A stretch of DNA of 64,000 nt from a virus (taxonomy: Duplodnaviria; Caudoviricetes): positions 32,001 through 96,000 of the IMG/VR virus record IMGVR_UViG_3300028549_000365; one strand, 5' to 3'. Below, one piece after another: positions 77-58,337 of the stretch (within the stretch, counting starts at the first letter, position 1; each line of letters begins with the position of its first letter). The notes under the pieces are model-generated. The model had not been told where the DNA came from. It did no database searches and saw only the letters and a list, made by a program, of their open reading frames with translations. The translations under genes and the position numbers were made by a program.

Positions 77-165
77 GTATCTCCTTTTATATGTTTTCAA
101 ATATATGCTATGTCACCTATTTTTTTTAGGATTACTTGAATTATTTTAATATTAAGAGGTGGACA

Positions 166-594
166 ATGCAAAGCATGAAAGATAAATTGGACGCTTTAAA
201 AGAGGCGTTGTATAATAGTACAGAAAACACAGTAGATAGCGATTTTACTCGTTTAATAAAAATAAAAGATATAGACGACGAGCTATTTGAGACGCTTATA
301 TTGATACACTCTAATTATAAAAACGAAATGCAGTCTGTGAAAAGACTTAATAGTAATACAATTACTAAACTTATAGATTTACAAATAGATATGTTGACAC
401 ATTATAAATTAGTTTTAGCGGATGTAGACAACTTAAAAAATGGTAGTGTTAAAAACCAGTTATTAACACCTAAAAATATAGTTATAGTATTAACAACGCT
501 AGGAATATTCATATCTGGTATATGGGTGTTGTTCGCTATAAACCCAGCTGCTGGTGATGCAGTAGTTAAAGTAATAACAAGTATATTTAAATAA
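166..594 (+). CDS. Membrane protein, helical N-terminus and C-terminal TM segment(s), holin-like topology
   Basis: RBS GAGG before ATG 166 (track start 136 is TTG). C-terminal hydrophobic stretch IVIVLTTLGIFISGIWVLFAI. Divergent from the M15A gene. Confidence 0.55.
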   Translation: MQSMKDKLDALKEALYNSTENTVDSDFTRLIKIKDIDDELFETLILIHSNYKNEMQSVKRLNSNTITKLIDLQIDMLTHYKLVLADVDNLKNGSVKNQLLTPKNIVIVLTTLGIFISGIWVLFAINPAAGDAVVKVITSIFK

Positions 595-603
595 GGACAT
601 AAA

Positions 604-1260
604 ATGATATTAAAGATTATAAAATTATATAACAAGATTTTAAGTTGGTTTTCAAAGCCTGAACCACAGCATCCAGAGATAAATACTTACACTCCTCCTA
701 CTAGAACAAGAGAAGCTATAATAGATAGTATAGATTATACTAACATAAAAGAACCTGACATATATAAAGTTAATGATACTAATAAGACTCTATTATTTAT
801 GGACGATATAGCTGAAAGTGAAATTCTGTATAAAGTAGATATAAGTAGAATGTTGAAGACTTATAAGAAGTCAGTACTTAATGATTTCACACTAGTGCAT
901 TGTTTTGATAACACAGCGGGTTATATGGTATATAAGTATATACTAGCTGGAAACAATATAGACTATGCTATATTAGATGTTAGTTTAGGTTATAAATTAC
1001 AAGTATCTCAAACTGAGTCAGTAACTCTTGATGGTATAGACGTAGCTTTATTGTTACTTAAACATAATCCAGATGTAAAGTTCTTGTTTTCTACTGTACA
1101 TACTATGAATGAAAGAAATCCAGAAATGTCTGTTTACTATAAGAAGTTTAGAGCGGCTACTGGTAAATCACTTATGGATCATTATTTAGATAAGAACAGT
1201 TATAGACATGATAAACTATATACCTTTTTATACGGTGACGAAAATGAAACTAACAGTTAA
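604..1260 (+). CDS. Stand-alone response-regulator receiver (CheY-like) protein with N-terminal extension
   Basis: LLFMDD acidic pocket, YAILDVSL phospho-acceptor Asp (codon 976-978), LDGIDVA, FLFST, terminal YLDK lysine. No output domain. Confidence 0.8.
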   Translation: MILKIIKLYNKILSWFSKPEPQHPEINTYTPPTRTREAIIDSIDYTNIKEPDIYKVNDTNKTLLFMDDIAESEILYKVDISRMLKTYKKSVLNDFTLVHCFDNTAGYMVYKYILAGNNIDYAILDVSLGYKLQVSQTESVTLDGIDVALLLLKHNPDVKFLFSTVHTMNERNPEMSVYYKKFRAATGKSLMDHYLDKNSYRHDKLYTFLYGDENETNS

Positions 1261-2662
1261 CGTAAAACTACAGATACTTTTTAGTAAGTATAACCTTATA
1301 AAATACTTTTCAATGTTAATATCGTTCTACTTATTTTTCTTAGTTATCTACGCGGTAACTTTGATAAGTTTATATAGTGATGTGACAAATGATTATAATA
1401 CACGTTTAGCCACTATTGATAAGACTGAGGGTACAGAATTTAACCTTATGTGTAATGTTGTTTCTTGTAAGAGATTAACTTATAAGTTAGACGATAAAGG
1501 TAATATGTTAACATACGTTAATGATAACAATATACTTAAGGTAAGTGAGAATAAATTTCCTAAAGATAATATATATTTTGGTTTTGTAAACCAGAATTTA
1601 GAAACTGTTATACACTACGGAGATCTTACTTTTTATATAGATGACTTTAAATACATATCATTAGTATTTACATTACTAGTGATAACTAACTTCTTATTCA
1701 CAATAATATTTACATTAGTGTTTATAAAAACAGTATTAGACAGGTATCATAATGAACTTATAGAAAAGAATGTATATAAGGCAGACTTAGAAACTAAATT
1801 ACAGAGAGATATAACAGAAAGTATACACCATGAGATGGGGATGCCTATAGCTATAATAGATACTTTAGTAACAGACCTTTATGCTAATCTTTATAAATGT
1901 AAATACACAGATGACGGTGTATGTGACTTTAACAACGAAACTGTTGATAAGTCGCTCTGTAAAGACTGTCCGCTACATAGTAGAAAGAGAGAGACTGACA
2001 CCTTGGCTATAGAGTATTACTCTAGAATAAAAGCGTCTATAGTTAAACTTAATACTATACTCAATCTTATAGCTGGATCTAAGCATATAAAATATGGTAA
2101 CGGTAGTTACAGTGCGTATATGATAATAGAGAATGTGTTAGCTGGTATAAATAACTTTAGAGTTAGTAAAATAAAAGCTACTTACATTAATCAAGAACTT
2201 ATGCATAAATGCGCAGTAGGTGCACCTATGAATAATGGTGAACTGATGTTGGTTATTAACAACATTATAACTAATAGTATTGAAGCTGATACGCCTGAAA
2301 TGATCTTTGAAGCAAGTATGAACCCAGATGGTAGATTAGATATAATAGTTACAGATAAGGGTAGAGGTATCAGAGATGGTTTCGATAACATAATAGCTGA
2401 TGATATTATATTTAAATATGGATATAGTACTAAAGATAGTAAAGGTATACATATGGTGTCAAGCAGTATTATTCAGAAGATATTGTATAAGTTAGGGTTT
2501 AGTGTAGCTACTACCTCATCAAGAGGTTCAGGTTTATCTACTAACAAGGGTATGTTATTAAACTCAGGAGGCGACTTAGTGTTACTTTCAACATCGTATT
2601 TAGGAACAAGTTTTAAAATAACCATACCAACCAAGGAAAGAAGAAATGAACAAAAAACTTAG
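1244..2662 (+). CDS. Membrane sensor histidine kinase (2 TM, HisKA and HATPase_c)
   Basis: Two TM segments flank a ~100-aa periplasmic domain. H-box ESIHHEMGMP (His at 1829-1831), N-box NNIITNSIEA, G1 DKGRGI, F-box IFKYGYSTK, G2 RGSGL, final GTSFKITIP. ATG 1244 overlaps the receiver gene end. Confidence 0.9.
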   Translation: MKLTVNVKLQILFSKYNLIKYFSMLISFYLFFLVIYAVTLISLYSDVTNDYNTRLATIDKTEGTEFNLMCNVVSCKRLTYKLDDKGNMLTYVNDNNILKVSENKFPKDNIYFGFVNQNLETVIHYGDLTFYIDDFKYISLVFTLLVITNFLFTIIFTLVFIKTVLDRYHNELIEKNVYKADLETKLQRDITESIHHEMGMPIAIIDTLVTDLYANLYKCKYTDDGVCDFNNETVDKSLCKDCPLHSRKRETDTLAIEYYSRIKASIVKLNTILNLIAGSKHIKYGNGSYSAYMIIENVLAGINNFRVSKIKATYINQELMHKCAVGAPMNNGELMLVINNIITNSIEADTPEMIFEASMNPDGRLDIIVTDKGRGIRDGFDNIIADDIIFKYGYSTKDSKGIHMVSSSIIQKILYKLGFSVATTSSRGSGLSTNKGMLLNSGGDLVLLSTSYLGTSFKITIPTKERRNEQKT

Positions 2663-2927
2663 TGTAATAGTTATTGTCGTTTTACTTAATATTAACGTAC
2701 TAATCGCTGATACACCATGCGGCGATTGTGTTACTATAGTAAAACATTTTGATCTAGATGTTACTATAAAGAACACATCTGGATGGAAGCGCGTTTGTAA
2801 TAACGGAAAAATAAAATTGTACACAAGTAAGAAGCTCGTAGGATCTGATTTAACAGATTTATGCGAGTGTATAACTAAAGAACAATTTAGAAGCAGAGCG
2901 ATTGAATCAACAAGGGTTATAAAATGA
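2646..2927 (+). CDS. Small secreted/periplasmic Cys-rich protein
   Basis: Sec-type signal peptide MNKKLSVIVIVVLLNINVLIA. Five Cys (CGDC, RVC, LCEC). Overlaps both neighbours. Confidence 0.65.
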   Translation: MNKKLSVIVIVVLLNINVLIADTPCGDCVTIVKHFDLDVTIKNTSGWKRVCNNGKIKLYTSKKLVGSDLTDLCECITKEQFRSRAIESTRVIK

Positions 2928-4120
2928 AACAAATTTGTATATTAATTATAATGATATTATGTAGCTTAAACCTTTATGGTGAAATAGCTACCAATATATC
3001 AGGGAACATAGAATACAGTAATATTAATACTGAAACAACTTATAACAACGGAGACTCTAAACAATATAACATAAATAGATTAGATACCACTGTTAATGTG
3101 GATACATATTTTGATAGTAGTAAGTTTGTCGTTAGCATCGGATATCTAGGTACAGATAGTGATGTTTATAATAATGTAGTACAAAAGGATATAACACCAC
3201 TTAAGGTGTTATATATAAATGAATTTTATTACACCACTAATATTTCGGAACACCTAACTGTATCTATTGGAGAGTTTACATTCAGAAAGGGTACGTTCTA
3301 TGAGCATAGTTATACTGGTGATAAGGTAGGTAATGGACTTTACAATATAATAGATGTTAATCTACAAGGTGGGTTAGTTAGCTGTATAACAGAGAATCAT
3401 GTTATAAGTATAGGTCGTATGTACTTTGATAAGTACGGTAAATCATTTTACGATTATGGTGAAGTTAACCCTGAACTATCTTACGATAGTTATAAAGGTA
3501 CAAATGTTGATATGCTTATACATAAATACAACAAAGATGAATTATACATAGAAACTAACATTTATGATATGGAACAGGTTGTAAACGGTTCACCTATTAT
3601 AAATACAAAAGCTTTAGGTGTTGGGATATCTTATGACAATACAGATAACAGTGGTATATTATATTATAGTATATTAACTAAAACAAAATCTACTGGTGAC
3701 ACTACTTCTTTATCACCTATATTTGTACCATATAAATCAGATAAGATACATTTCGATAAGTTTAGATCAAATGGTTACAGTTATTTGTTAGGTGTAAAAA
3801 AAGAATTAGATAATGTAATCTACGGAAAAGACATGACAATAGGATTTACATATACAGATAGAAGTAAAGGTTATCATAGTTTATTAGCTGGTTCACCTAT
3901 GTCACCTATGTCATATAGTGATGTCGGTAAATTCTACAATGTAAATACAGGATTAAAACTTAATAAAGATACTGTTATTAACTTAATGTATAGTAGACAT
4001 GACACAACTGGTATAAATAATAAGCTAGGTCTAAGTACTTTAACCTATGAAACAGGTAATTTACCTAATGGCGTGTCGCACAATGACAGTCTGATTGTTC
4101 AATTTTATATGAATTTTTAA
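2924..4120 (+). CDS. Outer-membrane beta-barrel (porin-like) protein
   Basis: Signal peptide, many alternating amphipathic strands rich in Y/G/N, and C-terminal strand LIVQFYMNF ending in Phe (BAM-type signal). Confidence 0.7.
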   Translation: MKQICILIIMILCSLNLYGEIATNISGNIEYSNINTETTYNNGDSKQYNINRLDTTVNVDTYFDSSKFVVSIGYLGTDSDVYNNVVQKDITPLKVLYINEFYYTTNISEHLTVSIGEFTFRKGTFYEHSYTGDKVGNGLYNIIDVNLQGGLVSCITENHVISIGRMYFDKYGKSFYDYGEVNPELSYDSYKGTNVDMLIHKYNKDELYIETNIYDMEQVVNGSPIINTKALGVGISYDNTDNSGILYYSILTKTKSTGDTTSLSPIFVPYKSDKIHFDKFRSNGYSYLLGVKKELDNVIYGKDMTIGFTYTDRSKGYHSLLAGSPMSPMSYSDVGKFYNVNTGLKLNKDTVINLMYSRHDTTGINNKLGLSTLTYETGNLPNGVSHNDSLIVQFYMNF

Positions 4121-4693: not shown

Positions 4694-5875
4694 ATGAACG
4701 AAGAACAAATGAATATAAAACTAGACAGTCTAATATTAACATTAGAAGATAAAGAAAATAAGTTATTAAATTTGAATAAAATAAACTTACTTATAGGGGA
4801 TAATACTAACTTACAATACGACGCTAGCGTAATTGATAATGTTGAATTAAGTAAAGAGCACTTAGTAGGTATATACGGAGAACTTAATAAGTTAGGGTAT
4901 AACTTAGAAGATGATACTCTATATCATATGTCTACTGAAAGTTATGATAGTATATCTGCTGAAGATCTAGACGGTGAGAGAAAGAGTCTTATAGCTAGAG
5001 TAGACAGGTATATACGAAACGTAATAGGCGATATTACATCTATAGGTGATGATTTAGACTCTATAATGAAACTTATGAAAACAGTTAAGACTGATAAGCT
5101 AACTAAATTACTTAATGATCTAAATAGTGGAGTTTATAAAGAATCTAAGGATAAGATAACTAACCCAGCTATAAATAGCGACTTAGCGTTCTATTTTGTA
5201 AACGGACACACTGATATAGAACTAAACTCTTTAAAAGAGCTGTGTTCTACAGCTAGTGACTTGTTACTTAAAGATAAGCTGTTTGATGTTATGACTAAAT
5301 ATGCTTATGATAATTTGATTGTTGGTACAGACGTAGAAGATGAGATACCTACACATCAAGCTTCTGTTAAACATTTAGATAAAATAACATTACCAGAAGT
5401 AAGAGATTGGTTAAATAAGAATACTAAATTTGGTATTTACAATAGATACATAGGTAACAAATTTAGAATACTTAGTGTGTATCAAGATGAAGATGGTGCT
5501 GATGTTAGATTTGACACATATAATATTCCTAAAAACTATTACTTCGGTAAGACATTATCTCCGTTAACACTAGAAGAGTGTAAGCAACTTGTTAAAGAAG
5601 GTATAGATTTAGCTAACGATAGTGCGACTATGGCTGCTGTTGGTAGAGTTAATGCATTTGATACGTTCTGGAAGAGTGTTAGAAGTAAAATAGGTACTAT
5701 GGTATCAACGCATTTATTTAATATGTTTGCAGTTAAGAGATGGTTTAGACAAATTAACATGGGTAATGTATATTCGACAGGTACATACACAGTTCTAATA
5801 GGGCTAAAGAAATCACATATTGATATGTTAGATATGATACACAACATAGTTATAGCTAGTACTAAAGGAAAGTAA
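4694..5875 (+). CDS. phiKZ-like internal head (virion) protein
   Basis: Acidic N-terminal propeptide with S/A-x-E processing-type sites (MSTES, ISAED) followed by a helical body, the pattern of phiKZ internal head proteins. Confidence 0.5.
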   Translation: MNEEQMNIKLDSLILTLEDKENKLLNLNKINLLIGDNTNLQYDASVIDNVELSKEHLVGIYGELNKLGYNLEDDTLYHMSTESYDSISAEDLDGERKSLIARVDRYIRNVIGDITSIGDDLDSIMKLMKTVKTDKLTKLLNDLNSGVYKESKDKITNPAINSDLAFYFVNGHTDIELNSLKELCSTASDLLLKDKLFDVMTKYAYDNLIVGTDVEDEIPTHQASVKHLDKITLPEVRDWLNKNTKFGIYNRYIGNKFRILSVYQDEDGADVRFDTYNIPKNYYFGKTLSPLTLEECKQLVKEGIDLANDSATMAAVGRVNAFDTFWKSVRSKIGTMVSTHLFNMFAVKRWFRQINMGNVYSTGTYTVLIGLKKSHIDMLDMIHNIVIASTKGK

Positions 5876-6609
5876 TGAAAACTATAATATTATTTGTGAT
5901 GGTATTAGCATTAAATGCTTTTGCTAATAAATTAGATAAACTTCAAGAGCGTAACGACATAATAAAAGCTAGTTATAAGTCTGTTAGTGATAACGCGGAA
6001 CACACAGATACTTGGTTAGGGTATGTTAGATATGGTAAAGATGTTATTATTAAAGATACTAAATTATTTATCATACCGACATTCGATGGTAAGTACGAGA
6101 AACGTAATAATGTTCAAGTCAATGACAAGTATGATATTAGTCTATTATTAGAATGCGATATACCTAATTCTATAACAGGCTACTATTTAAAAGGTAGTTA
6201 TATTGTGGACGAAGCTAATAAGATATACAGTAAAACAAAAACAGGTATAGGTATGTACCAGTATTTATATAGATCTGATAGAGTGTTGCTAAAGACACGT
6301 GAAGGCGTACAATATAGTGACACAAGTTACACTATCGATAAAGATAGTGTAAATGTAGCTTATATTAAGTTTGGTTTATTGTCTGGTTATTATTATGCTA
6401 ACAATATATTTATAAAGGCTAAAGCTGATTATGATTTAAGTGTTAAAAATAAAGATGACATAATAGATACCTTAGTTAGTGCGGAGTACTCCATTAACGA
6501 TAAAGTTAGTATAGAAACATCTTATAGTTACCTTTATACAAAAACACCTATAACTAATCTACAGCACACACAAAGAGTTTTTACAACATACTTAATATAC
6601 AAGTTTTAA
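5875..6609 (+). CDS. Outer-membrane beta-barrel, DUF481/YdiY-like
   Basis: Signal peptide MKTIILFVMVLALNAFA, ~245 aa, amphipathic strands, GIGMYQYLY motif, C-terminal RVFTTYLIYKF ending in Phe. TAATG overlap with the upstream gene. Confidence 0.65.
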   Translation: MKTIILFVMVLALNAFANKLDKLQERNDIIKASYKSVSDNAEHTDTWLGYVRYGKDVIIKDTKLFIIPTFDGKYEKRNNVQVNDKYDISLLLECDIPNSITGYYLKGSYIVDEANKIYSKTKTGIGMYQYLYRSDRVLLKTREGVQYSDTSYTIDKDSVNVAYIKFGLLSGYYYANNIFIKAKADYDLSVKNKDDIIDTLVSAEYSINDKVSIETSYSYLYTKTPITNLQHTQRVFTTYLIYKF

Positions 6610-50439: not shown

Positions 50440-50472
50440 ACATAAGATATAGGGATACCCTATATCTTATGT
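50440..50472. terminator. Bidirectional terminator
   Basis: 15-bp stem ACATAAGATATAGGG / CCCTATATCTTATGT. Confidence 0.75.
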
Positions 50473-53400
50473 ATATTTTTTTCTTTCTAAATTTATAGCT
50501 GGTTTAGGAATATCCGAAACAGTTCTAGTTTTAGGTTTGTTATCTACACCTGGAGCTTCATTACCAGGTATCTGTATTTCGTCTAAGTTATTAACTTTAA
50601 GACCACCACTAATATTACTATTAAGAGCGACTATATTCTCATTCATGCCTTTAAGTGCATTTAATATTTCTGTTTGAACATTTAATGTTTGTTCTGATGT
50701 TGATGAAGTCTTAGCCAAATACTCATTTGAAGCTTTAGCTTCATTTGTTTTAACAGTATCAGCTTTTGCTTTTTCTTTATCAGCTACATTACCAGAAGGT
50801 TTATTTTCTACTTTAGTTTCTTTCTTAGGAGTAACTGTAGAAGTTTTTGATTTAGCAATATCTGTTTTTAACGTAGGTTTTACTGTAGACTTATTCTCTA
50901 CTTTAGCTTCTTTCTTAGGAGTAACTGTAGAAGTTTTCTTTTCTTTAAGTTTATCTCCAACTAATTTAGGATCTTCTCCTTTAGAAATAGCTGCTGCTTT
51001 TGGATTTTTCTTAGGGTCTATGCTAGTTCCTTTTTCCTTAATCTTTTTAACGTCAGCTTTCTTAGGTTCTATTTTAGGGTTTTGTTTACCGTCAGCAACA
51101 GGCGGTGTTCCGTTTCTAGAACCAATAGGTTCTACGTGCCAATGTTCATTAGCTAACGGACGGTATAATTTATATTTAGCTAATAACCCAGAACTATCCG
51201 CCCAGTCCATGTCAGCCTTACCAGAAGCAGCATAATTTATATCAGCGGCTATACCGACTTCATGTTTAGATTTACCCGGAGGAGCCACCCATTTACGCGC
51301 AGCTGCTTCACTACCATATTTAATTAACGCAGCCTCCCATAAAGCTTGTTGTTTAGCGGGTTCTCTGTATCCAGAGGTAAACACTAAATCTCTATTTTTT
51401 ATAGACTTAAATTCTTTACTCATACCGGCTATATTATCTAAGAATGTTTTGTCTACACCTTGTGTCTGACCTCCAGCTATTTTTAACCCTTCAGTTTGAT
51501 TACCTTTAAATAACCCAGCTACATTACCAGCCGCTGTAGTTATCATACCTACGGTGTTTTTAACAGCACCAGAGTTCATAATGTTGTCTTTAACATTTGA
51601 TAACTTATCGGTAAAACTACTAAACCAACCACCGCTAGACTTAGGTTGCGCTTGTGGTTTAGAAGGTAGAACAGCTGATTGTTTTGTATCGACGGTTCTT
51701 CCGTTAATTAGTTTAACTGGTTTACTAACTGTAGCTTGTTCTTTAGTCTTATTCTCTATTTTAGGCTTACTATCGGTAGTGTTAGATGTAGATTTAGTAC
51801 CAGTTACTTTTTTACTAGCTACTATAGCCGATCCAGCTGTCGTACCTACTGCGGTAGTTGTTTTAGCTGGAGGTTTTACAGTCGGACTAGGTGAACTACC
51901 TAACATTTTTAAAACCGTAGCTTCTTCATCATTAATACGTTTAGCAACACCTTTTTGCACATCGACCGACGAGCTTTTAAAATGCACCCCCACATTCTTA
52001 CGTTTATAAGCATAAGTAGCCTTTATTATCTTTTCATCGTCAGCCGCAGCTGGATCCAACCCAGCCGCTTTTATACCTTCTGGTATAATTGGCCTACTGC
52101 CTCCGTATTGTACACCTATCGAGTAAGCAGTACTTTGTAATGCTTTAGATCTAGTAGGTAGATCTATTCCATATTTCTTAAGTAAAGTAACCTGTGGTTG
52201 ATAATGAGATTTAGCTATAAAAGCTTCCTGATCTTCCGCGAATTCATCTGGATAATCTTTAAATATAGCTTTCCATTTATCCCCAAACTCAGGAGTACCT
52301 GGTGTTAAGCCTTTAAAATTATTTTTAAATCTACTATTAGCTACATAGTTAGCTACAGTTTTAGTAGAAAACTGATGCGTACCGTAAGAAACTCCTCCGT
52401 GATCACCTTTTCCAGATGAAACCATACCAGCACCATTCTTCTTACCTCCAGATTCAAATAACCCAGCCACTGCACCTATACCACTACTTATTAAGTCTCT
52501 AGCTTTACCGACACCAGCACTTATATAATTACCTACATTACTTATAGCGTTAGAAGTGTTTTGTACTGCAGCTGAATTCATTATATTATCTTTAACGTTA
52601 GATAAAGCGTTACCTACATTACTAACTCCATTAGCTATACTGTCACCTATCTTACCGAAGAAACCTTTCTCTTCTTTAGGGTCTACAGTGTTTCCTTTAA
52701 CAGTTTTAGTTAATTCTTTATTCTCTTTACTAGCTACACCTTTATTTTGTAGTTCACCAGCTAATTTAGCAGCTGGTACTGGATTACCGTTTTCATCGAG
52801 CACTGGATCTTTTTCGTTAAATATATCGAATCCCAATATACCTTTAGATACAGCTGAACCAAAACTATAACCTTGTGCTATGAATTTAGTTATTGACACT
52901 ACATCATTAGCTAGTAATAGTAAACCTACTCCAGGTAATAACTTAGAAGCAATTTTAGCTATTAATCTCTTACCGACTTCACCAGTTAAACGTTTAGCTA
53001 TCTTAGTTTTAAGTTGTTTTGCGTAAGATACTACTTTATCAAATATCTCTCCTCCGCCTTTCAATACTTTAGCTCCTACTTTTTTAACGTTCTCTACTAA
53101 ATTACCTCCGGCTTTCTTAGCACTATCTAATGCGTTACCACCTACCTTTTTAACAGTGTCAATAGCTGAACTACCCCATTTCTTAAACTTATCAAACATA
53201 CCACCAGATTTAGGTGCTTCTGGAGTTGGAGTAGTTATAGCTACTGGTGTTTTACCAGCCAGTTTAGTACCTAAATTAACAGCTCCTTTAGTAGCATCTA
53301 CAGCAATACCACCAGCTTTTATACCTAGTTTAAGTACACCTGTTTTATGTGCTGCGTAAGCTGCTGCTCCGTAACCAACCATTTCACCAGTTGTAGTTGC

Positions 53401-56400
53401 TGTAGATTTCTTCTCTTCACTAGGTTTACCACCTGATATAGTATCACTACCTGAGCCACTAGTAGCTGAGTCACCACCAGAACCTTGTTGTGAAGGATGT
53501 GTTCCATTATTCTTAGCGTCATTCTCAGCTATTTCTTCTTTACTAGGAGCCATCCAACCTAATCCAGGTGCGCTACTTATAACAGATTTAGCACCCATTA
53601 TTATATTGCCACCTATATTGCTTATAAAGTTAGGTATGTTTTTAAGATATCCGAACCCTACTTTCATCCATTCAAAACCAGTTTTAAGTACATCAAATAT
53701 ACCAGTAGCAATAGGTTTAAGAAAGTTAAATACATTCTTAACAGCAGTCCATGTACCGCTTAGAAATTCTTTAACATCCGTGAATGTTATACGTAAAGCA
53801 CTCATACCAGCTGCTATCGCTAATAATATTGTTGTAGGGTTAATTAAACTTGTTTCTTTCTTTTCAGCTACAGGTTTACCATCTTTGTCTTTAGTAACTT
53901 TAGGTTTGTCTTCTTTCTTTTTAAACATGTTAGAAAACGTATCTTTGTAACGTTTTGTTCTATCACCTAGTGATTCTCCAACTACTTGTTTTTTGGAATT
54001 CTTTTTATCGGCAACAGCTTTAGCCTTAGCTTCTTTCTTAGACTTTATTTCCGTGTCTCTTACTTTCTTATCTTCTTTCTTTTTAATAGCTTTAAGTCTA
54101 GCTTCTTCTCTTTTCTCAGCAGGTGATTTACCTAGACCAAATAGACTTTTCTTATTATCTGCTTTAGCTTTATCGTTTTCTTTTACTTTATCTCTTTTTT
54201 CGTCTAATGTTTTTTGCCAAGGAAATAAACGCTTACTATCGTGCTTAGCTGCAGCTTCTTGTGACGCCGCTGTCCATCTACCTGCAAAAGGATCAAGAAA
54301 AGATCTTTTAAGTCTAGTTATACGAGAGGGTATTTTATCTATAGGGTTATGCATAAACTCAGGGGTTACCGCACCAGCTACAGCACCAGTTACCGCGGCT
54401 CCTGTATTCCATAATCCCTTAAGTCCTATACCAGCTGCGTTAAATAATCCTCCACCTATACCTTTAGCTACACTGCTAGCTATACCTGATGACTCACCTT
54501 TAGTTTTATCTTTATCATTGCTACTAGTTAACTTTTTAAGACCTACTAAACCTCTACCTGTATTAGCTACGCCTCTTCCAGCTGCAGCAATACCGCCAGT
54601 TAAACCGTCCCAAGCTAAACCAGGTACTTTTAATAACCCATCTCTAGCTCCGTGTGCTATTTTCTTATCCCATTTTCTAGTAGTAGCTAATATATTCTTA
54701 ATAGTCATCTTTTTCTTTAATCTTGAAAATAAAGAAGTGCCATTTCTTCTGAAATTAAAAGCTTTTAACCAGATATCAAAGTCAGTAACCATCTTAGTTC
54801 TAAACTCTTCACTTTTAAAGAACTCTTGTCTCATATGTTCTTCTGCTTCTAAGGATAACTCTTTTAAACCTGTCCCAGTTAGTTTACCCATTATCTCATC
54901 AGTAGCTTCTTTCTTAAGATCATCAAGTTTAGTCTTAGCTTTAAATAAAGGACTGTATTTTTGTTTAAGTTTTTCTAGAGCTCCTGTTAATCTAGATTTA
55001 ACAGAACCTGGGTCTATTTGTTTAGCTACAGCTAGCCATTTAGAAAAGTCTTTTATTTGGTCAGACTTATATTCAGGACTACTAAAGAACTCTAACTTAA
55101 GTGCTTTCTTAGTGTCTTCGTCCATATCATCATATTTACCTATAAACACTATATCTTTATACTCGTCATCCTCACCACCTAGTAGTTTAGTTTTAAGTAT
55201 ATTAAAGTTCTCTTTCATAGAGTTTTTATAATAACCTAGCTCTTGCTTAACATATTCTGTTTTTTCAGACATAAAATCTTTAGCTTTATTAAGACCCTTT
55301 TCAGCAGAACGTTTAACTTTACTAGCTACTTGTAGATTTTTATCTGTACTCATAGCTAAGTGTTGTCTAGCTAATTTAGTACCAGCTGCAAACATCCATT
55401 CGTTAAATGTTTTATACGTTGTTTGTTTCATAAAGTGTTTAACTAAAATTGCTTTAGTGTCATCGTCGTAATACCCAGCAGCTAAATCACCACTAGCCAT
55501 TAACCTTTGATACATAGGATTATTATCGAACTTACTTTTCTTAACTTTACTAGGTACTTCTTTTTCATAACGTTCTTTAAGTACTTTTAGTCTACTTCTA
55601 AGTTTATCTGCGTTAGATTTGAATTTTGGTTTTTCTTTCTTTTCACCAGCGGCTTCTGCTAAATACTTAGCCGAGAACTTAGTCGTAAATTCTTCAAATG
55701 ACATTCTGTGTGAAAATGCTTTACCCCACGCATTTCTCATAGTGACTTCTACCTCGGGAGGTAAAGAAGGTCCTTGTACTTTAGCCGTTAATGACTTAGC
55801 CTTATCTTCAGCAGCTTTTTTAGTGTCGTTTAAAACATCTTTTAAATACATACCTGTATTACTGTTTTTAGCGTCTTCTAATCTTACACCTATTTTATCT
55901 TTTATTATCTTAGCTTCATCGACAGCTTTATCACTAACAGCTTTTAGATTAGTATTCTTAGTCTTGTCACTAACTTCAGAAGCTATATCCTTAACAACAC
56001 TTGTTAATTCTGATGTATTTGTGGTAGCTACAGCGTTTAATAATGTTTCTAACTTATTATCATTAAGAACATATTCTTTACCGTGCACAACACCAGCTTC
56101 TTCATGTTTACCACCATCACCTGTATATCCACCCTTTGAAAAACCTGTACTACTTGATTTAGTAATTACGTCACCCCATTCGTCTTTTTCTTCTTTTTTA
56201 GCTTTAACCTTATTTTTTCCTAAAGCTTTATCTTTAAAAGATCTTTTATCGTTCTCTTCTTTTATTTTCTTAGCTTCGTCAAATTTTGCTTTATCTTTAG
56301 AATATTGTTCGCGAATGTACTTGTCGTCCATCTTATCACTAGCGCCTATTATAAAATTAGTATAGCCTTTTTTATTATAGCTTGTTGATAGGTTACGTTT

Positions 56401-58287
56401 ATCGAACTCAGTTACACCTAATTCTTCTCCTATAGAACCATATCCCATAGCTTCCAGTTCTTTTAATTCAGACTGTAAGCCAGGAGCTTGATCCCGCATA
56501 CTACTTAACGTATTGCCTAACGAGGTTCCAAGTTCAAGATCGTTTCTTTCTCCGTACACTAATGTTTTCTTAACACTACTAGCGAATGGTTGTTTTAGTC
56601 TATCAGGTAGATGTTGTACAAACTTATTAGACATTAACTTACGTGGATCAGAACTAAAACCAGGATTAACTACATATTTAATTAAAGCTTTTCTAACTAT
56701 CTTACTATCTGTTTCATCTAGCTCTAACCCACCGTGTTGTTTAATAGTAGACATTAATGACTCTATACTTTTTCCTGTACCCTGTTCTAATCTATGTGTT
56801 ACATTTTGTTTAATGGTTTTCTTAATAGTTTCTTTATCTTCAAACCTATCATTCTTAGTATTGTAAATAAGTTCTTTTGCGTCAACATCAGACTGGTTAA
56901 CATTACTAGCTGTAGATATCCTTAATGTCTTCATTTCAGCATATATCTTACTAAGTAACCCAGGTATAATCTTAACTATTGATGTATGCGCTCTATTATC
57001 AAAAATAGATGCGTCGTTCATATTCTTCTTTTCTATTAGAAGTTTACTTTTAGAGTTAGCGTCAAACATATCACCAAGTTCATGCATCATAGTACCTATT
57101 AGTCCATCGTGTTCTGTAGCTTTCTCTTTTAATGTACCACTTATATCTGTCATAGCTAACTTAGCGTTATATATTTTCTCTCTTAGAAAATCATTCTTTT
57201 CAGCAACTTTACCTAAAGCTGACCCAGCCTTTTCTTTAATAGTTTCCGCTAACATCATACCTAATAGTGCTGATTTAGACATTCCCATTTCAGAACCACT
57301 AGCTATCATAGCGGCCATATTTTCTGTTTCACCTAGTACTTCTAAGGTTCTATCTTTGTAGTCTTCTACTTTATCTTTAAGACGTTTCTTAAACGCCATA
57401 AGTGGGTTAGCGTCAGAATATAACATATCGTTAAATCCAGTAACTGCTCTACTCTTCATATCTTCTACTAATCTTTCAGAGTTCTTAATCTTAACAACTT
57501 CTGGTAGACCTGTGTTATTTATAATAGTTGCAAATTGATTCTTGAATGTATCAAATCCTGTTTTAGTTGCTTCTAAAAGTTCTTTATTAACGAACAATGA
57601 TTTATATTGTATCTCTAATGATTTTCTGTAATAACTATTTGTTATTTCATAATCAAATTTTCTTAGACGTTCTACGTTAGCTGACGTAGTCAAAAGTATT
57701 TCATTTTGAGTAGTAGCTCTGTTATTCTCTATTTGTTGTCTAACAGACATCTCTACAGCGGTAGCTTCCTCTCTAGCACCTAAAGCTGCTAATAACTCCG
57801 CGTTTATTTTCTCTCGTTCTAAGTCCTCTTTACTAGGACCTTTATCTTCTGTATTATTACCATCTGATAACCAATCGCTTAATTTTGCTAACACACCATT
57901 AAGTTTATCATTATTAGCAGGTAATACTTTTTGTATAGCGTCTAAAGTAGACTTACCTTGTTTCTTTATTTCTATCCCTGCGTTATAGAACTCTTCTTTA
58001 ACACTATCGTGAATGTCAGTAACTGTATCAGCTTCTTTAGATAAGCTTTCAGGTATAGACTTCTTAGCTATATCTGTGGCTGTTTTAAGTTTGTCGTCCT
58101 TAAAAGTACCAACGAAGTTACTAGCAACATCACCAGCAGATCTTGTAATAGCTTCTCTACTGTCTTTAGGTGGAGGTGGAGCCGCCATAGGGTCTCCGAA
58201 GTCCATACCACCTAGTTCGTCATCTAGGTTAAAATCCTCATCATTAAGATCTAAATCTAGATCATCTGGGTTTTTGTTTTTTGCCAT
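50467..58287 (-). CDS. Giant tail/virion protein with two peptidoglycan-hydrolase domains (phiKZ gp181-like)
   Basis: Head-to-head with the vRNAP beta-prime gene, as gp181/gp180. Muramidase-like FESGG...SSGKGDHGGVSYGTHQF domain and M15 peptidase TSGYR...SKHEVGIAADI...EHWHVE domain. AAGGA RBS favours ATG 58287. Confidence 0.8.
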   Translation of the reverse strand: MAKNKNPDDLDLDLNDEDFNLDDELGGMDFGDPMAAPPPPKDSREAITRSAGDVASNFVGTFKDDKLKTATDIAKKSIPESLSKEADTVTDIHDSVKEEFYNAGIEIKKQGKSTLDAIQKVLPANNDKLNGVLAKLSDWLSDGNNTEDKGPSKEDLEREKINAELLAALGAREEATAVEMSVRQQIENNRATTQNEILLTTSANVERLRKFDYEITNSYYRKSLEIQYKSLFVNKELLEATKTGFDTFKNQFATIINNTGLPEVVKIKNSERLVEDMKSRAVTGFNDMLYSDANPLMAFKKRLKDKVEDYKDRTLEVLGETENMAAMIASGSEMGMSKSALLGMMLAETIKEKAGSALGKVAEKNDFLREKIYNAKLAMTDISGTLKEKATEHDGLIGTMMHELGDMFDANSKSKLLIEKKNMNDASIFDNRAHTSIVKIIPGLLSKIYAEMKTLRISTASNVNQSDVDAKELIYNTKNDRFEDKETIKKTIKQNVTHRLEQGTGKSIESLMSTIKQHGGLELDETDSKIVRKALIKYVVNPGFSSDPRKLMSNKFVQHLPDRLKQPFASSVKKTLVYGERNDLELGTSLGNTLSSMRDQAPGLQSELKELEAMGYGSIGEELGVTEFDKRNLSTSYNKKGYTNFIIGASDKMDDKYIREQYSKDKAKFDEAKKIKEENDKRSFKDKALGKNKVKAKKEEKDEWGDVITKSSSTGFSKGGYTGDGGKHEEAGVVHGKEYVLNDNKLETLLNAVATTNTSELTSVVKDIASEVSDKTKNTNLKAVSDKAVDEAKIIKDKIGVRLEDAKNSNTGMYLKDVLNDTKKAAEDKAKSLTAKVQGPSLPPEVEVTMRNAWGKAFSHRMSFEEFTTKFSAKYLAEAAGEKKEKPKFKSNADKLRSRLKVLKERYEKEVPSKVKKSKFDNNPMYQRLMASGDLAAGYYDDDTKAILVKHFMKQTTYKTFNEWMFAAGTKLARQHLAMSTDKNLQVASKVKRSAEKGLNKAKDFMSEKTEYVKQELGYYKNSMKENFNILKTKLLGGEDDEYKDIVFIGKYDDMDEDTKKALKLEFFSSPEYKSDQIKDFSKWLAVAKQIDPGSVKSRLTGALEKLKQKYSPLFKAKTKLDDLKKEATDEIMGKLTGTGLKELSLEAEEHMRQEFFKSEEFRTKMVTDFDIWLKAFNFRRNGTSLFSRLKKKMTIKNILATTRKWDKKIAHGARDGLLKVPGLAWDGLTGGIAAAGRGVANTGRGLVGLKKLTSSNDKDKTKGESSGIASSVAKGIGGGLFNAAGIGLKGLWNTGAAVTGAVAGAVTPEFMHNPIDKIPSRITRLKRSFLDPFAGRWTAASQEAAAKHDSKRLFPWQKTLDEKRDKVKENDKAKADNKKSLFGLGKSPAEKREEARLKAIKKKEDKKVRDTEIKSKKEAKAKAVADKKNSKKQVVGESLGDRTKRYKDTFSNMFKKKEDKPKVTKDKDGKPVAEKKETSLINPTTILLAIAAGMSALRITFTDVKEFLSGTWTAVKNVFNFLKPIATGIFDVLKTGFEWMKVGFGYLKNIPNFISNIGGNIIMGAKSVISSAPGLGWMAPSKEEIAENDAKNNGTHPSQQGSGGDSATSGSGSDTISGGKPSEEKKSTATTTGEMVGYGAAAYAAHKTGVLKLGIKAGGIAVDATKGAVNLGTKLAGKTPVAITTPTPEAPKSGGMFDKFKKWGSSAIDTVKKVGGNALDSAKKAGGNLVENVKKVGAKVLKGGGEIFDKVVSYAKQLKTKIAKRLTGEVGKRLIAKIASKLLPGVGLLLLANDVVSITKFIAQGYSFGSAVSKGILGFDIFNEKDPVLDENGNPVPAAKLAGELQNKGVASKENKELTKTVKGNTVDPKEEKGFFGKIGDSIANGVSNVGNALSNVKDNIMNSAAVQNTSNAISNVGNYISAGVGKARDLISSGIGAVAGLFESGGKKNGAGMVSSGKGDHGGVSYGTHQFSTKTVANYVANSRFKNNFKGLTPGTPEFGDKWKAIFKDYPDEFAEDQEAFIAKSHYQPQVTLLKKYGIDLPTRSKALQSTAYSIGVQYGGSRPIIPEGIKAAGLDPAAADDEKIIKATYAYKRKNVGVHFKSSSVDVQKGVAKRINDEEATVLKMLGSSPSPTVKPPAKTTTAVGTTAGSAIVASKKVTGTKSTSNTTDSKPKIENKTKEQATVSKPVKLINGRTVDTKQSAVLPSKPQAQPKSSGGWFSSFTDKLSNVKDNIMNSGAVKNTVGMITTAAGNVAGLFKGNQTEGLKIAGGQTQGVDKTFLDNIAGMSKEFKSIKNRDLVFTSGYREPAKQQALWEAALIKYGSEAAARKWVAPPGKSKHEVGIAADINYAASGKADMDWADSSGLLAKYKLYRPLANEHWHVEPIGSRNGTPPVADGKQNPKIEPKKADVKKIKEKGTSIDPKKNPKAAAISKGEDPKLVGDKLKEKKTSTVTPKKEAKVENKSTVKPTLKTDIAKSKTSTVTPKKETKVENKPSGNVADKEKAKADTVKTNEAKASNEYLAKTSSTSEQTLNVQTEILNALKGMNENIVALNSNISGGLKVNNLDEIQIPGNEAPGVDNKPKTRTVSDIPKPAINLERKKYT

Positions 58288-58337
58288 GTTCATTCCTTGA
58301 CTAAATCTCATATATAACTATAAATCAAGGAAACGCA

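Follow-up and report, generated by a model that had tools for sequence, protein, structure and literature searches.

In every histidine kinase, catalysis and the recognition of partners centre on the dimerization and histidine phosphotransfer (DHp) hairpin; its turn helps to set whether autophosphorylation occurs in cis or in trans, and response regulators dock beside its tip, as in the HK853-RR468 structures. In HK853, YF1/FixL (4gcz), ZraS, and CpxA, this hairpin turn is short. A kinase encoded on a 64,000-nucleotide stretch of phage DNA (bases 32001-96000 of the 222-kb virus record IMGVR_UViG_3300028549_000365, hereafter the window) resembles these enzymes in its topology of two transmembrane segments, in the H-box His on DHp helix 1, in the hairpin itself, and in a catalytic ATP-binding (CA) domain with N, G1, and G2 boxes. 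Instead of the short turn, however, the phage kinase has about 33 residues with four conserved cysteines. This insert is a real, undescribed kinase variant, and we put at roughly 0.55 the probability that its four cysteines bind a metal, most likely Zn with a structural function, and that the insert has a structural or docking role. A literature search on zinc or cysteine modules in the DHp and on phage-encoded kinases, with subscription journals outside its coverage, returned no description of either the insert or the family.

Cysteine and metal chemistry is found elsewhere in histidine kinases. RegB has a redox-active Cys near its DHp, and NreB and AirS carry iron–sulfur (Fe-S) clusters in N-terminal PAS or GAF domains. 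Metal and thiol inputs have been reviewed for PAS domains (Zn in the cytoplasmic PAS of WalK, disulfides in ArcB) and for the CA domain (a disulfide in SrrB), none of them in the DHp turn (PMC8534201). WalK, ArcB, SrrB, RegB, NreB, and AirS thus share with the phage kinase a cytoplasmic thiol or metal chemistry on a histidine kinase, but their sites lie in PAS, GAF, or CA domains or consist of a single Cys, and a Cys4 mini-domain at the DHp tip is found in none of them.

The kinase gene and its parts are as follows, with residues numbered on the 472-residue form (P0001, the database copy, which starts at the ATG at 1244):

1244..2662, + strand: phage sensor histidine kinase gene (472 residues with the ATG start at 1244; 484 residues for the whole open frame, which begins at 1208)
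1307..1378, + strand: transmembrane helix 1 (residues ~22-45; hydropathy peak centred on 26-39; model helix 15-62)
1379..1645, + strand: small extracytoplasmic sensor domain (residues ~46-134; model beta strands 75-133; acidic flanks)
1646..1891, + strand: transmembrane helix 2 and DHp helix 1 (a single unbroken model helix, 135-216; H-box H195-H196-E197)
1892..1990, + strand: Cys4 insert at the tip of the DHp hairpin (residues 217-249, ~33 residues; encloses 1898-1978)
1991..2095, + strand: DHp helix 2 (model helix 250-284; near-invariant R249 and D252 at its start)
2114..2638, + strand: CA (HATPase_c) domain (N, G1, and G2 boxes; model alpha/beta domain 291-465)

By its predicted fold and its motifs, the phage protein is a histidine kinase. 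An AlphaFold model built from 110 homologues has a mean predicted local distance difference test (pLDDT) score of 91.7, and Foldseek matched this model to YF1 (4gcz, E 2e-10) and HK853 (E 5e-9), both with a probability of 1.00. In Pfam, HATPase_c (PF02518) was the only match (28.5 bits vs. a cutoff of 26.4; residues 345-442 of the 484-residue frame); HisKA and HAMP gave none, and neither Pfam nor the model showed a PAS or GAF domain. A profile of 44 family sequences run against the PDB retrieved FixL/YF1, ZraS, WalK, SrrB, HK853, and CheA over the H-box, N, G1, and G2 regions, with E values for the CA domain down to 1e-8, and aligned the H-box of the phage kinase with that of FixL. The N, G1, and G2 boxes are kept, and N344, E347, A348, D371, G373, G375, K397, R427, G428, and G430 of the CA domain are invariant or near-invariant in the 44- and 110-sequence sets. 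The phospho-acceptor His196 (codon 1829-1831) is invariant in the 110 sequences and stands in an H-E-x3-P context, with E197 and P201 conserved in at least 90%, on helix 1 of the hairpin that precedes the CA domain. Judged from its sequence, the kinase is a predicted autophosphorylating two-component sensor.

Hydropathy gives the kinase two transmembrane segments. With a K-rich, cytoplasmic N-terminus (four K/R and no D/E in residues 1-21) and an acidic domain between the two segments, the topology is the classic one, which puts both the DHp and the insert on the cytoplasmic side. The extracytoplasmic domain has a Cys pair of its own, C70/C75 (C-x4-C; codons 1451-1453 and 1466-1468), which is invariant in the 44 sequences and present in at least 90% of the 110. 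Nothing else in the sensor domain is as well conserved as this pair, which probably forms a periplasmic disulfide.

Four of the seven cysteines of the kinase fall inside 24 residues of the insert. A preliminary description of this DNA had reported a C-x7-C-x11-C-x2-C-x2-H motif between the two DHp helices, and this is confirmed by the codons (TGT at 1898-1900, 1922-1924, 1958-1960, and 1967-1969 for C219, C227, C239, and C242; CAT at 1976-1978 for H245) and by the model, in which helix 135-216, the insert, and helix 250-284 follow one another. The motif was also said to come just after the phospho-His; it lies 22 residues after His196, and DHp helix 1 ends 20 residues past that His. The loop was further said to be normally a few residues long; relatives with such an ordinary turn do occur in the family, where the distance from the H-box to a conserved KxIK is 52-64 residues in short-loop forms and 83-98 residues in Cys4 forms.

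Structure prediction likewise places the insertion at the turn of the DHp hairpin, as a compact and confident unit. In the full-length AlphaFold model, the insert has a pLDDT of 94-97 and consists of a beta bridge (218-226) beside C219/C227 and two short helices (236-239 and 243-246) around C239-x2-C242; a separate prediction for the 80-residue hairpin by itself (pLDDT 89.4) gave the same elements. The fixed spacing C-x7-C-x(8-13)-C-x2-C offers four candidate ligands. The insert is not a classic zinc ribbon, since only its second pair is a C-x2-C, located at short helices, and the first is a C-x7-C that brackets a hairpin, in place of the two CxxC knuckles of zinc ribbons. If metal-binding, it would be nearer to a knuckle-plus-helix arrangement.

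The family was recovered with a word-indexed search, which gave 46 relatives, and with an exhaustive search of 1.84 billion cluster representatives, which gave 220 at E <=1e-3. The relatives are nearly all 440-490 residues long and metagenomic, several of them on contigs of 120-250 kb. A 61-sequence alignment had been picked for having the insert, so the conservation claim rests instead on the window's own clade, taken without selection for the insert (39 representatives, support 1.0, mean pairwise identity 39%, minimum 26%). In this clade, the cysteines singled out in the preliminary description are kept: C219 in 37/39, C227 in 39/39, C239 in 38/39, and C242 in 38/39, compared with 39/39 for the phospho-His. 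Other columns that stand out in this clade are a Pro before the first Cys, R249, and D252 (38/39 each), and the residues between the cysteines are variable. At the Pro position, the kinase of the window itself has a Lys (K218, 1895-1897).

The full family alignment comprises 163 representatives of at least 380 residues. Across these proteins, Cys makes up 7.4% of the loop residues vs. 0.94% of the remainder, an 8-fold enrichment. This enrichment, together with retention in 37-39 of 39 members at 39% mean identity, argues that the Cys pattern is not due to chance. The C-x7-C-x(8-13)-C-x2-C pattern is also found in members only 22-28% identical to the query.

The trailing His fared differently. 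The preliminary description counted it among the metal ligands of a Cys4/His site, but the His245 column holds N, K, F, Y, or R in the clade. His245 was therefore rejected as a fifth ligand, and the motif is Cys4, not Cys4/His. In two relatives (P0097 and P0107) that do not have the second Cys, a His is found a few residues past the C-x2-C, in a manner that would fit the replacement of one metal ligand by another. Conservation of the thiols at the level of catalytic residues, their fixed spacing, the cytoplasmic location, the compact predicted fold, and these His-for-Cys swaps together fit a mononuclear Cys4 site, in which the metal would most likely be Zn.

Classing the centre of the hairpin by its number of cysteines divides the 163 representatives as follows:

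At least 4 Cys: 65/163 representatives, mostly C-x7-C-x(8-13)-C-x2-C
3 Cys: 10/163 representatives
2 Cys: 21/163 representatives, mostly C-x2-C
1 Cys: 16/163 representatives
0 Cys: 51/163 representatives

Several observations weigh against a structural metal site. Short-loop members of the family are numerous; P0015 and P0061, in the window's own clade, each lack two of the cysteines; and long loops free of Cys occur, with 38-39 residues in P0082, P0083, P0090, and P0108 and 29-36 residues in P0067, P0068, and P0081. Since many relatives without the cysteines or without the whole insert look active, the cap appears dispensable for the kinase core, and the Cys-free long loops indicate that a long loop can fold without metal. 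The first pair is a C-x7-C and not the classic CxxC knuckle, the data would fit Zn, Fe, or an Fe-S cluster alike, and the docking role is one that we infer. Foldseek with the 80-residue hairpin returned no match of any kind, zinc modules included, and VIA-align wide with the same hairpin returned only generic helical hairpins (Z <=6.4, under the tool's noise level for helical models).

The Cys-free long loops and the odd C-x7-C spacing would also suit an insert that binds no metal at all, its cysteines forming two intramolecular disulfides or merely packing in an elaborated loop. We regard this as the least probable of the explanations considered: the insert is cytoplasmic, where disulfides are unlikely to be stable, its cysteines are conserved like the catalytic His over 26-39% identity, and some members have a His where a Cys would be expected, which fits a ligand and not a disulfide partner.

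The dispensability of a structural Cys4 loop has a parallel in the LID of Gram-positive adenylate kinases, which has a structural Zn(Cys4) site in some lineages and a metal-free loop in others. As in the phage insert, this is a dispensable Cys4 loop in a phosphotransfer enzyme; the folds are unrelated, and the likeness is one of analogy, not homology. Two other searches returned no clear counterpart: the ESM Atlas gave no usable feature match, with structure rows at template-modelling scores <0.4, and a 40-residue profile of the insert run against the PDB aligned only with the zinc-binding ribosomal proteins bL36 and L37Ae, at the CxxC, with non-significant E values of 0.39 and 1.3. We take the ribosomal matches as a lead, not as evidence.

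Short-loop relatives with a bare C-x2-C or C-x3-C at the hairpin apex (P0110, P0113, P0119, P0131, P0132, P0135, P0141, P0162, P0164, P0182, L004:5758-6762, L018, and L019) recall the zinc hook of Rad50, which links one coiled coil to a second, separate one through a CxxC at the tip of an antiparallel helical hairpin. The tip cysteines of both kinase protomers might similarly share a metal or disulfides across the dimer axis and so lock the DHp dimer, with the Cys4 and CxxC loops as two versions of one staple. The 21 of 163 representatives with just two apex cysteines, mostly C-x2-C, speak for such a staple, as two cysteines are insufficient for a Cys4 site in one chain, and the DHp dimer of established kinase structures places both hairpin tips at the same end of the bundle. 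For the phage insert itself, the monomer model instead packs the four Cys of one chain into a single compact, high-confidence unit. Its four cysteines thus seem to belong to one chain, and it is the short-loop relatives that the Rad50 apex resembles; we consider a staple between subunits unlikely.

In the structural reading that we favour, C219/C227 and C239/C242 would hold one metal ion, probably Zn(II), around which the long loop would become a rigid cap. A kinase dimer would have two of these caps, next to each other at the end of the four-helix bundle that is farthest from the membrane. The cap would chiefly be a structural and docking element beside the surface where response regulators dock. 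From there it could influence how the kinase recognises the phage's own probable receiver (described below), insulating the pair from host two-component systems; alternatively, it could set the balance between kinase and phosphatase activities. For the KinA inhibitors Sda and KipI, the proposed binding site on the kinase lies between its phospho-His and the bend of the hairpin, so regulation through this surface is already known (PMC8534201). We favour a structural or docking role because the tip adjoins the regulator docking surface and because these inhibitors are proposed to bind nearby.

On a tree made without the loop columns, the Cys4 state requires 17 changes, compared with a mean of 51 and a minimum of 39 when the labels are shuffled. 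Cys4 forms are scattered over several deep clades, and between these lie clades with short loops and a few whose long loops have no Cys. The simplest reading would be an old insert that was repeatedly trimmed or de-cysteinised, a direction of change that we infer and that depends on the root of the tree. Neither the region nor the kinase had a BLAST match among 50,697 deposited phage genomes. Two peptide patterns searched against 185,579 species genomes gave only generic ATPase-domain matches (Arthrobacter and a Clostridia metagenome-assembled genome) and no true family member; from this search, limited by its method, the kinase family looks restricted to phage and metagenome DNA.

The kinase is the third gene of a module whose other members in the window are:

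136..594, + strand: small C-terminally membrane-anchored protein, the first gene of the module; weakly holin-like (Phage_holin_5_2, E 0.024, under the cutoff)
604..1260, + strand: receiver-like protein of 218 residues, overlapping the start of the kinase
2646..2927, + strand: open reading frame directly 3' of the kinase, encoding a secreted Cys-containing protein of 93 residues
2924..4120, + strand: open reading frame encoding a barrel-like protein of 398 residues with an aromatic last residue (Phe), the fifth gene of the module

The module was surveyed at 136-4120 of the window and at the related loci L002, L010-L020, and L023-L025. Its gene order (membrane-anchored protein, receiver-like protein, kinase, secreted Cys protein, and barrel) recurs in IMG/VR contigs of 252, 119, and 41 kb and in more than 10 metagenome loci. 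Homologues of the membrane-anchored protein lie 5' of the receiver gene in eight metagenome loci, and wherever a related locus extends far enough 5' of the kinase, the gene immediately before the kinase is a receiver-like gene. Homologues of the secreted and barrel proteins follow the kinase in the same order in L002, L010-L013, L017-L019, L023, and L024. A tie between the Cys4 insert and the secreted and barrel genes was considered and ruled out: both genes follow kinases with a Cx3C loop (L018 and L019), and they were not found after the Cys4 kinase of L014.

The receiver-like protein matched only CheY and response regulators in a profile search against the PDB, all weakly (E 0.05-0.4). Among 12 sequences of this protein, D67, D68, D125, and K181/K197 are invariant, and T164 is conserved in at least 90%; Pfam Response_reg was found in 2 of the 12, weakly, with a best E of 0.01. 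A homologue search with the protein returned itself alone. The 218-residue protein is a probable divergent receiver and the probable phosphorylation partner of the kinase.

Two related loci depart from the common arrangement. On a 119-kb viral contig, L004:5758-6762 encodes a 334-residue relative of the kinase without the extracytoplasmic sensor domain; a receiver-like gene is still found upstream, and a tail-fibre-like gene follows the kinase, replacing the secreted protein and barrel. In L022:4501-5058, which is otherwise close to the L014 kinase, an in-frame stop falls 11 codons past the H-box His; either the gene copy is defective or, possibly, the assembly is wrong at this point. Elsewhere in the window, 5875-6609 encodes a second secreted protein with an aromatic end (LIYKF), like an outer-membrane barrel, which directly follows a 393-residue open reading frame without a PHROG match.

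The record that contains the window has a CheckV completeness estimate of 83%, and the window DNA has a guanine-plus-cytosine content of ~31%. PHROG matches in the record include a 721-residue major head protein, a virion structural protein, a phage-type polymerase subunit, and a ribonucleotide reductase. The length of 222 kb and these matches to phage head, virion, polymerase, and reductase genes identify it as a jumbo phage. One open reading frame of 2614 residues spans 50467-58311 on the - strand. An endolysin gene (PHROG 894, E 2e-34) lies just upstream of the module, in divergent orientation.

The proximity of this endolysin gene bears on whether the cap might be a regulatory switch, either a zinc-thiolate redox switch or an O2- or NO-labile Fe-S or Fe centre like those of NreB or AirS, that adds the redox or metal state of the host cytoplasm to the periplasmic signal in setting kinase or phosphatase output. 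A coupling of kinase activity to redox or metal state was the idea put forward in the preliminary description. Such a switch is physically possible, because oxidation or loss of metal would unfold the cap, and the site is on the catalytic hairpin, so that unfolding would reach the phospho-His helix directly. Cytoplasmic Cys-rich Zn sites whose oxidation unfolds a regulatory element are found in Hsp33 and RsrA, which differ from the phage insert in motif and fold and have in common with it a predicted cytoplasmic Cys-rich site. Kinases controlled through cysteines or zinc at other positions also exist (Zn in the PAS of WalK, PAS disulfides in ArcB, and a CA-domain disulfide in SrrB; PMC8534201), the evidence of conservation and cytoplasmic location serves this reading as well as a structural one, and lysis timing could profit from information on the energy state of the host.

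Set against this, the spacing fits none of the known Fe-S signatures tested. The kinase does not group with the Fe-S or redox-Cys sensor kinases, as its Cys cluster is in the DHp turn and it has no sequence match to NreB, AirS, ArcB, SrrB, or RegB beyond the CA domain. Most conserved cytoplasmic Cys4 sites are structural Zn sites, and sister lineages with the same gene module have lost the insert repeatedly, which argues against an indispensable second input. We hold a regulatory switch to be less likely than a structural or docking role, and the preliminary interpretation is thus supported in part, for a metal site though not for the His. It is somewhat more doubtful still that the cap is a true second input, zinc-thiolate or Fe-S, through which a periplasmic signal and the redox, metal, or energy state of the infected cell's cytoplasm would be combined and relayed to a receiver controlling the neighbouring lysis genes.

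A conserved metal-binding cap in the DHp turn would, if true, be a new structural element on a well-studied scaffold, and it would offer a handle on the influence of the bundle tip over partner choice and the kinase/phosphatase balance. The kinase family that carries it has so far been found only in giant phages, in an envelope-spanning module beside lysis genes, and thus bears on how large phages may sense the state of the infected cell.

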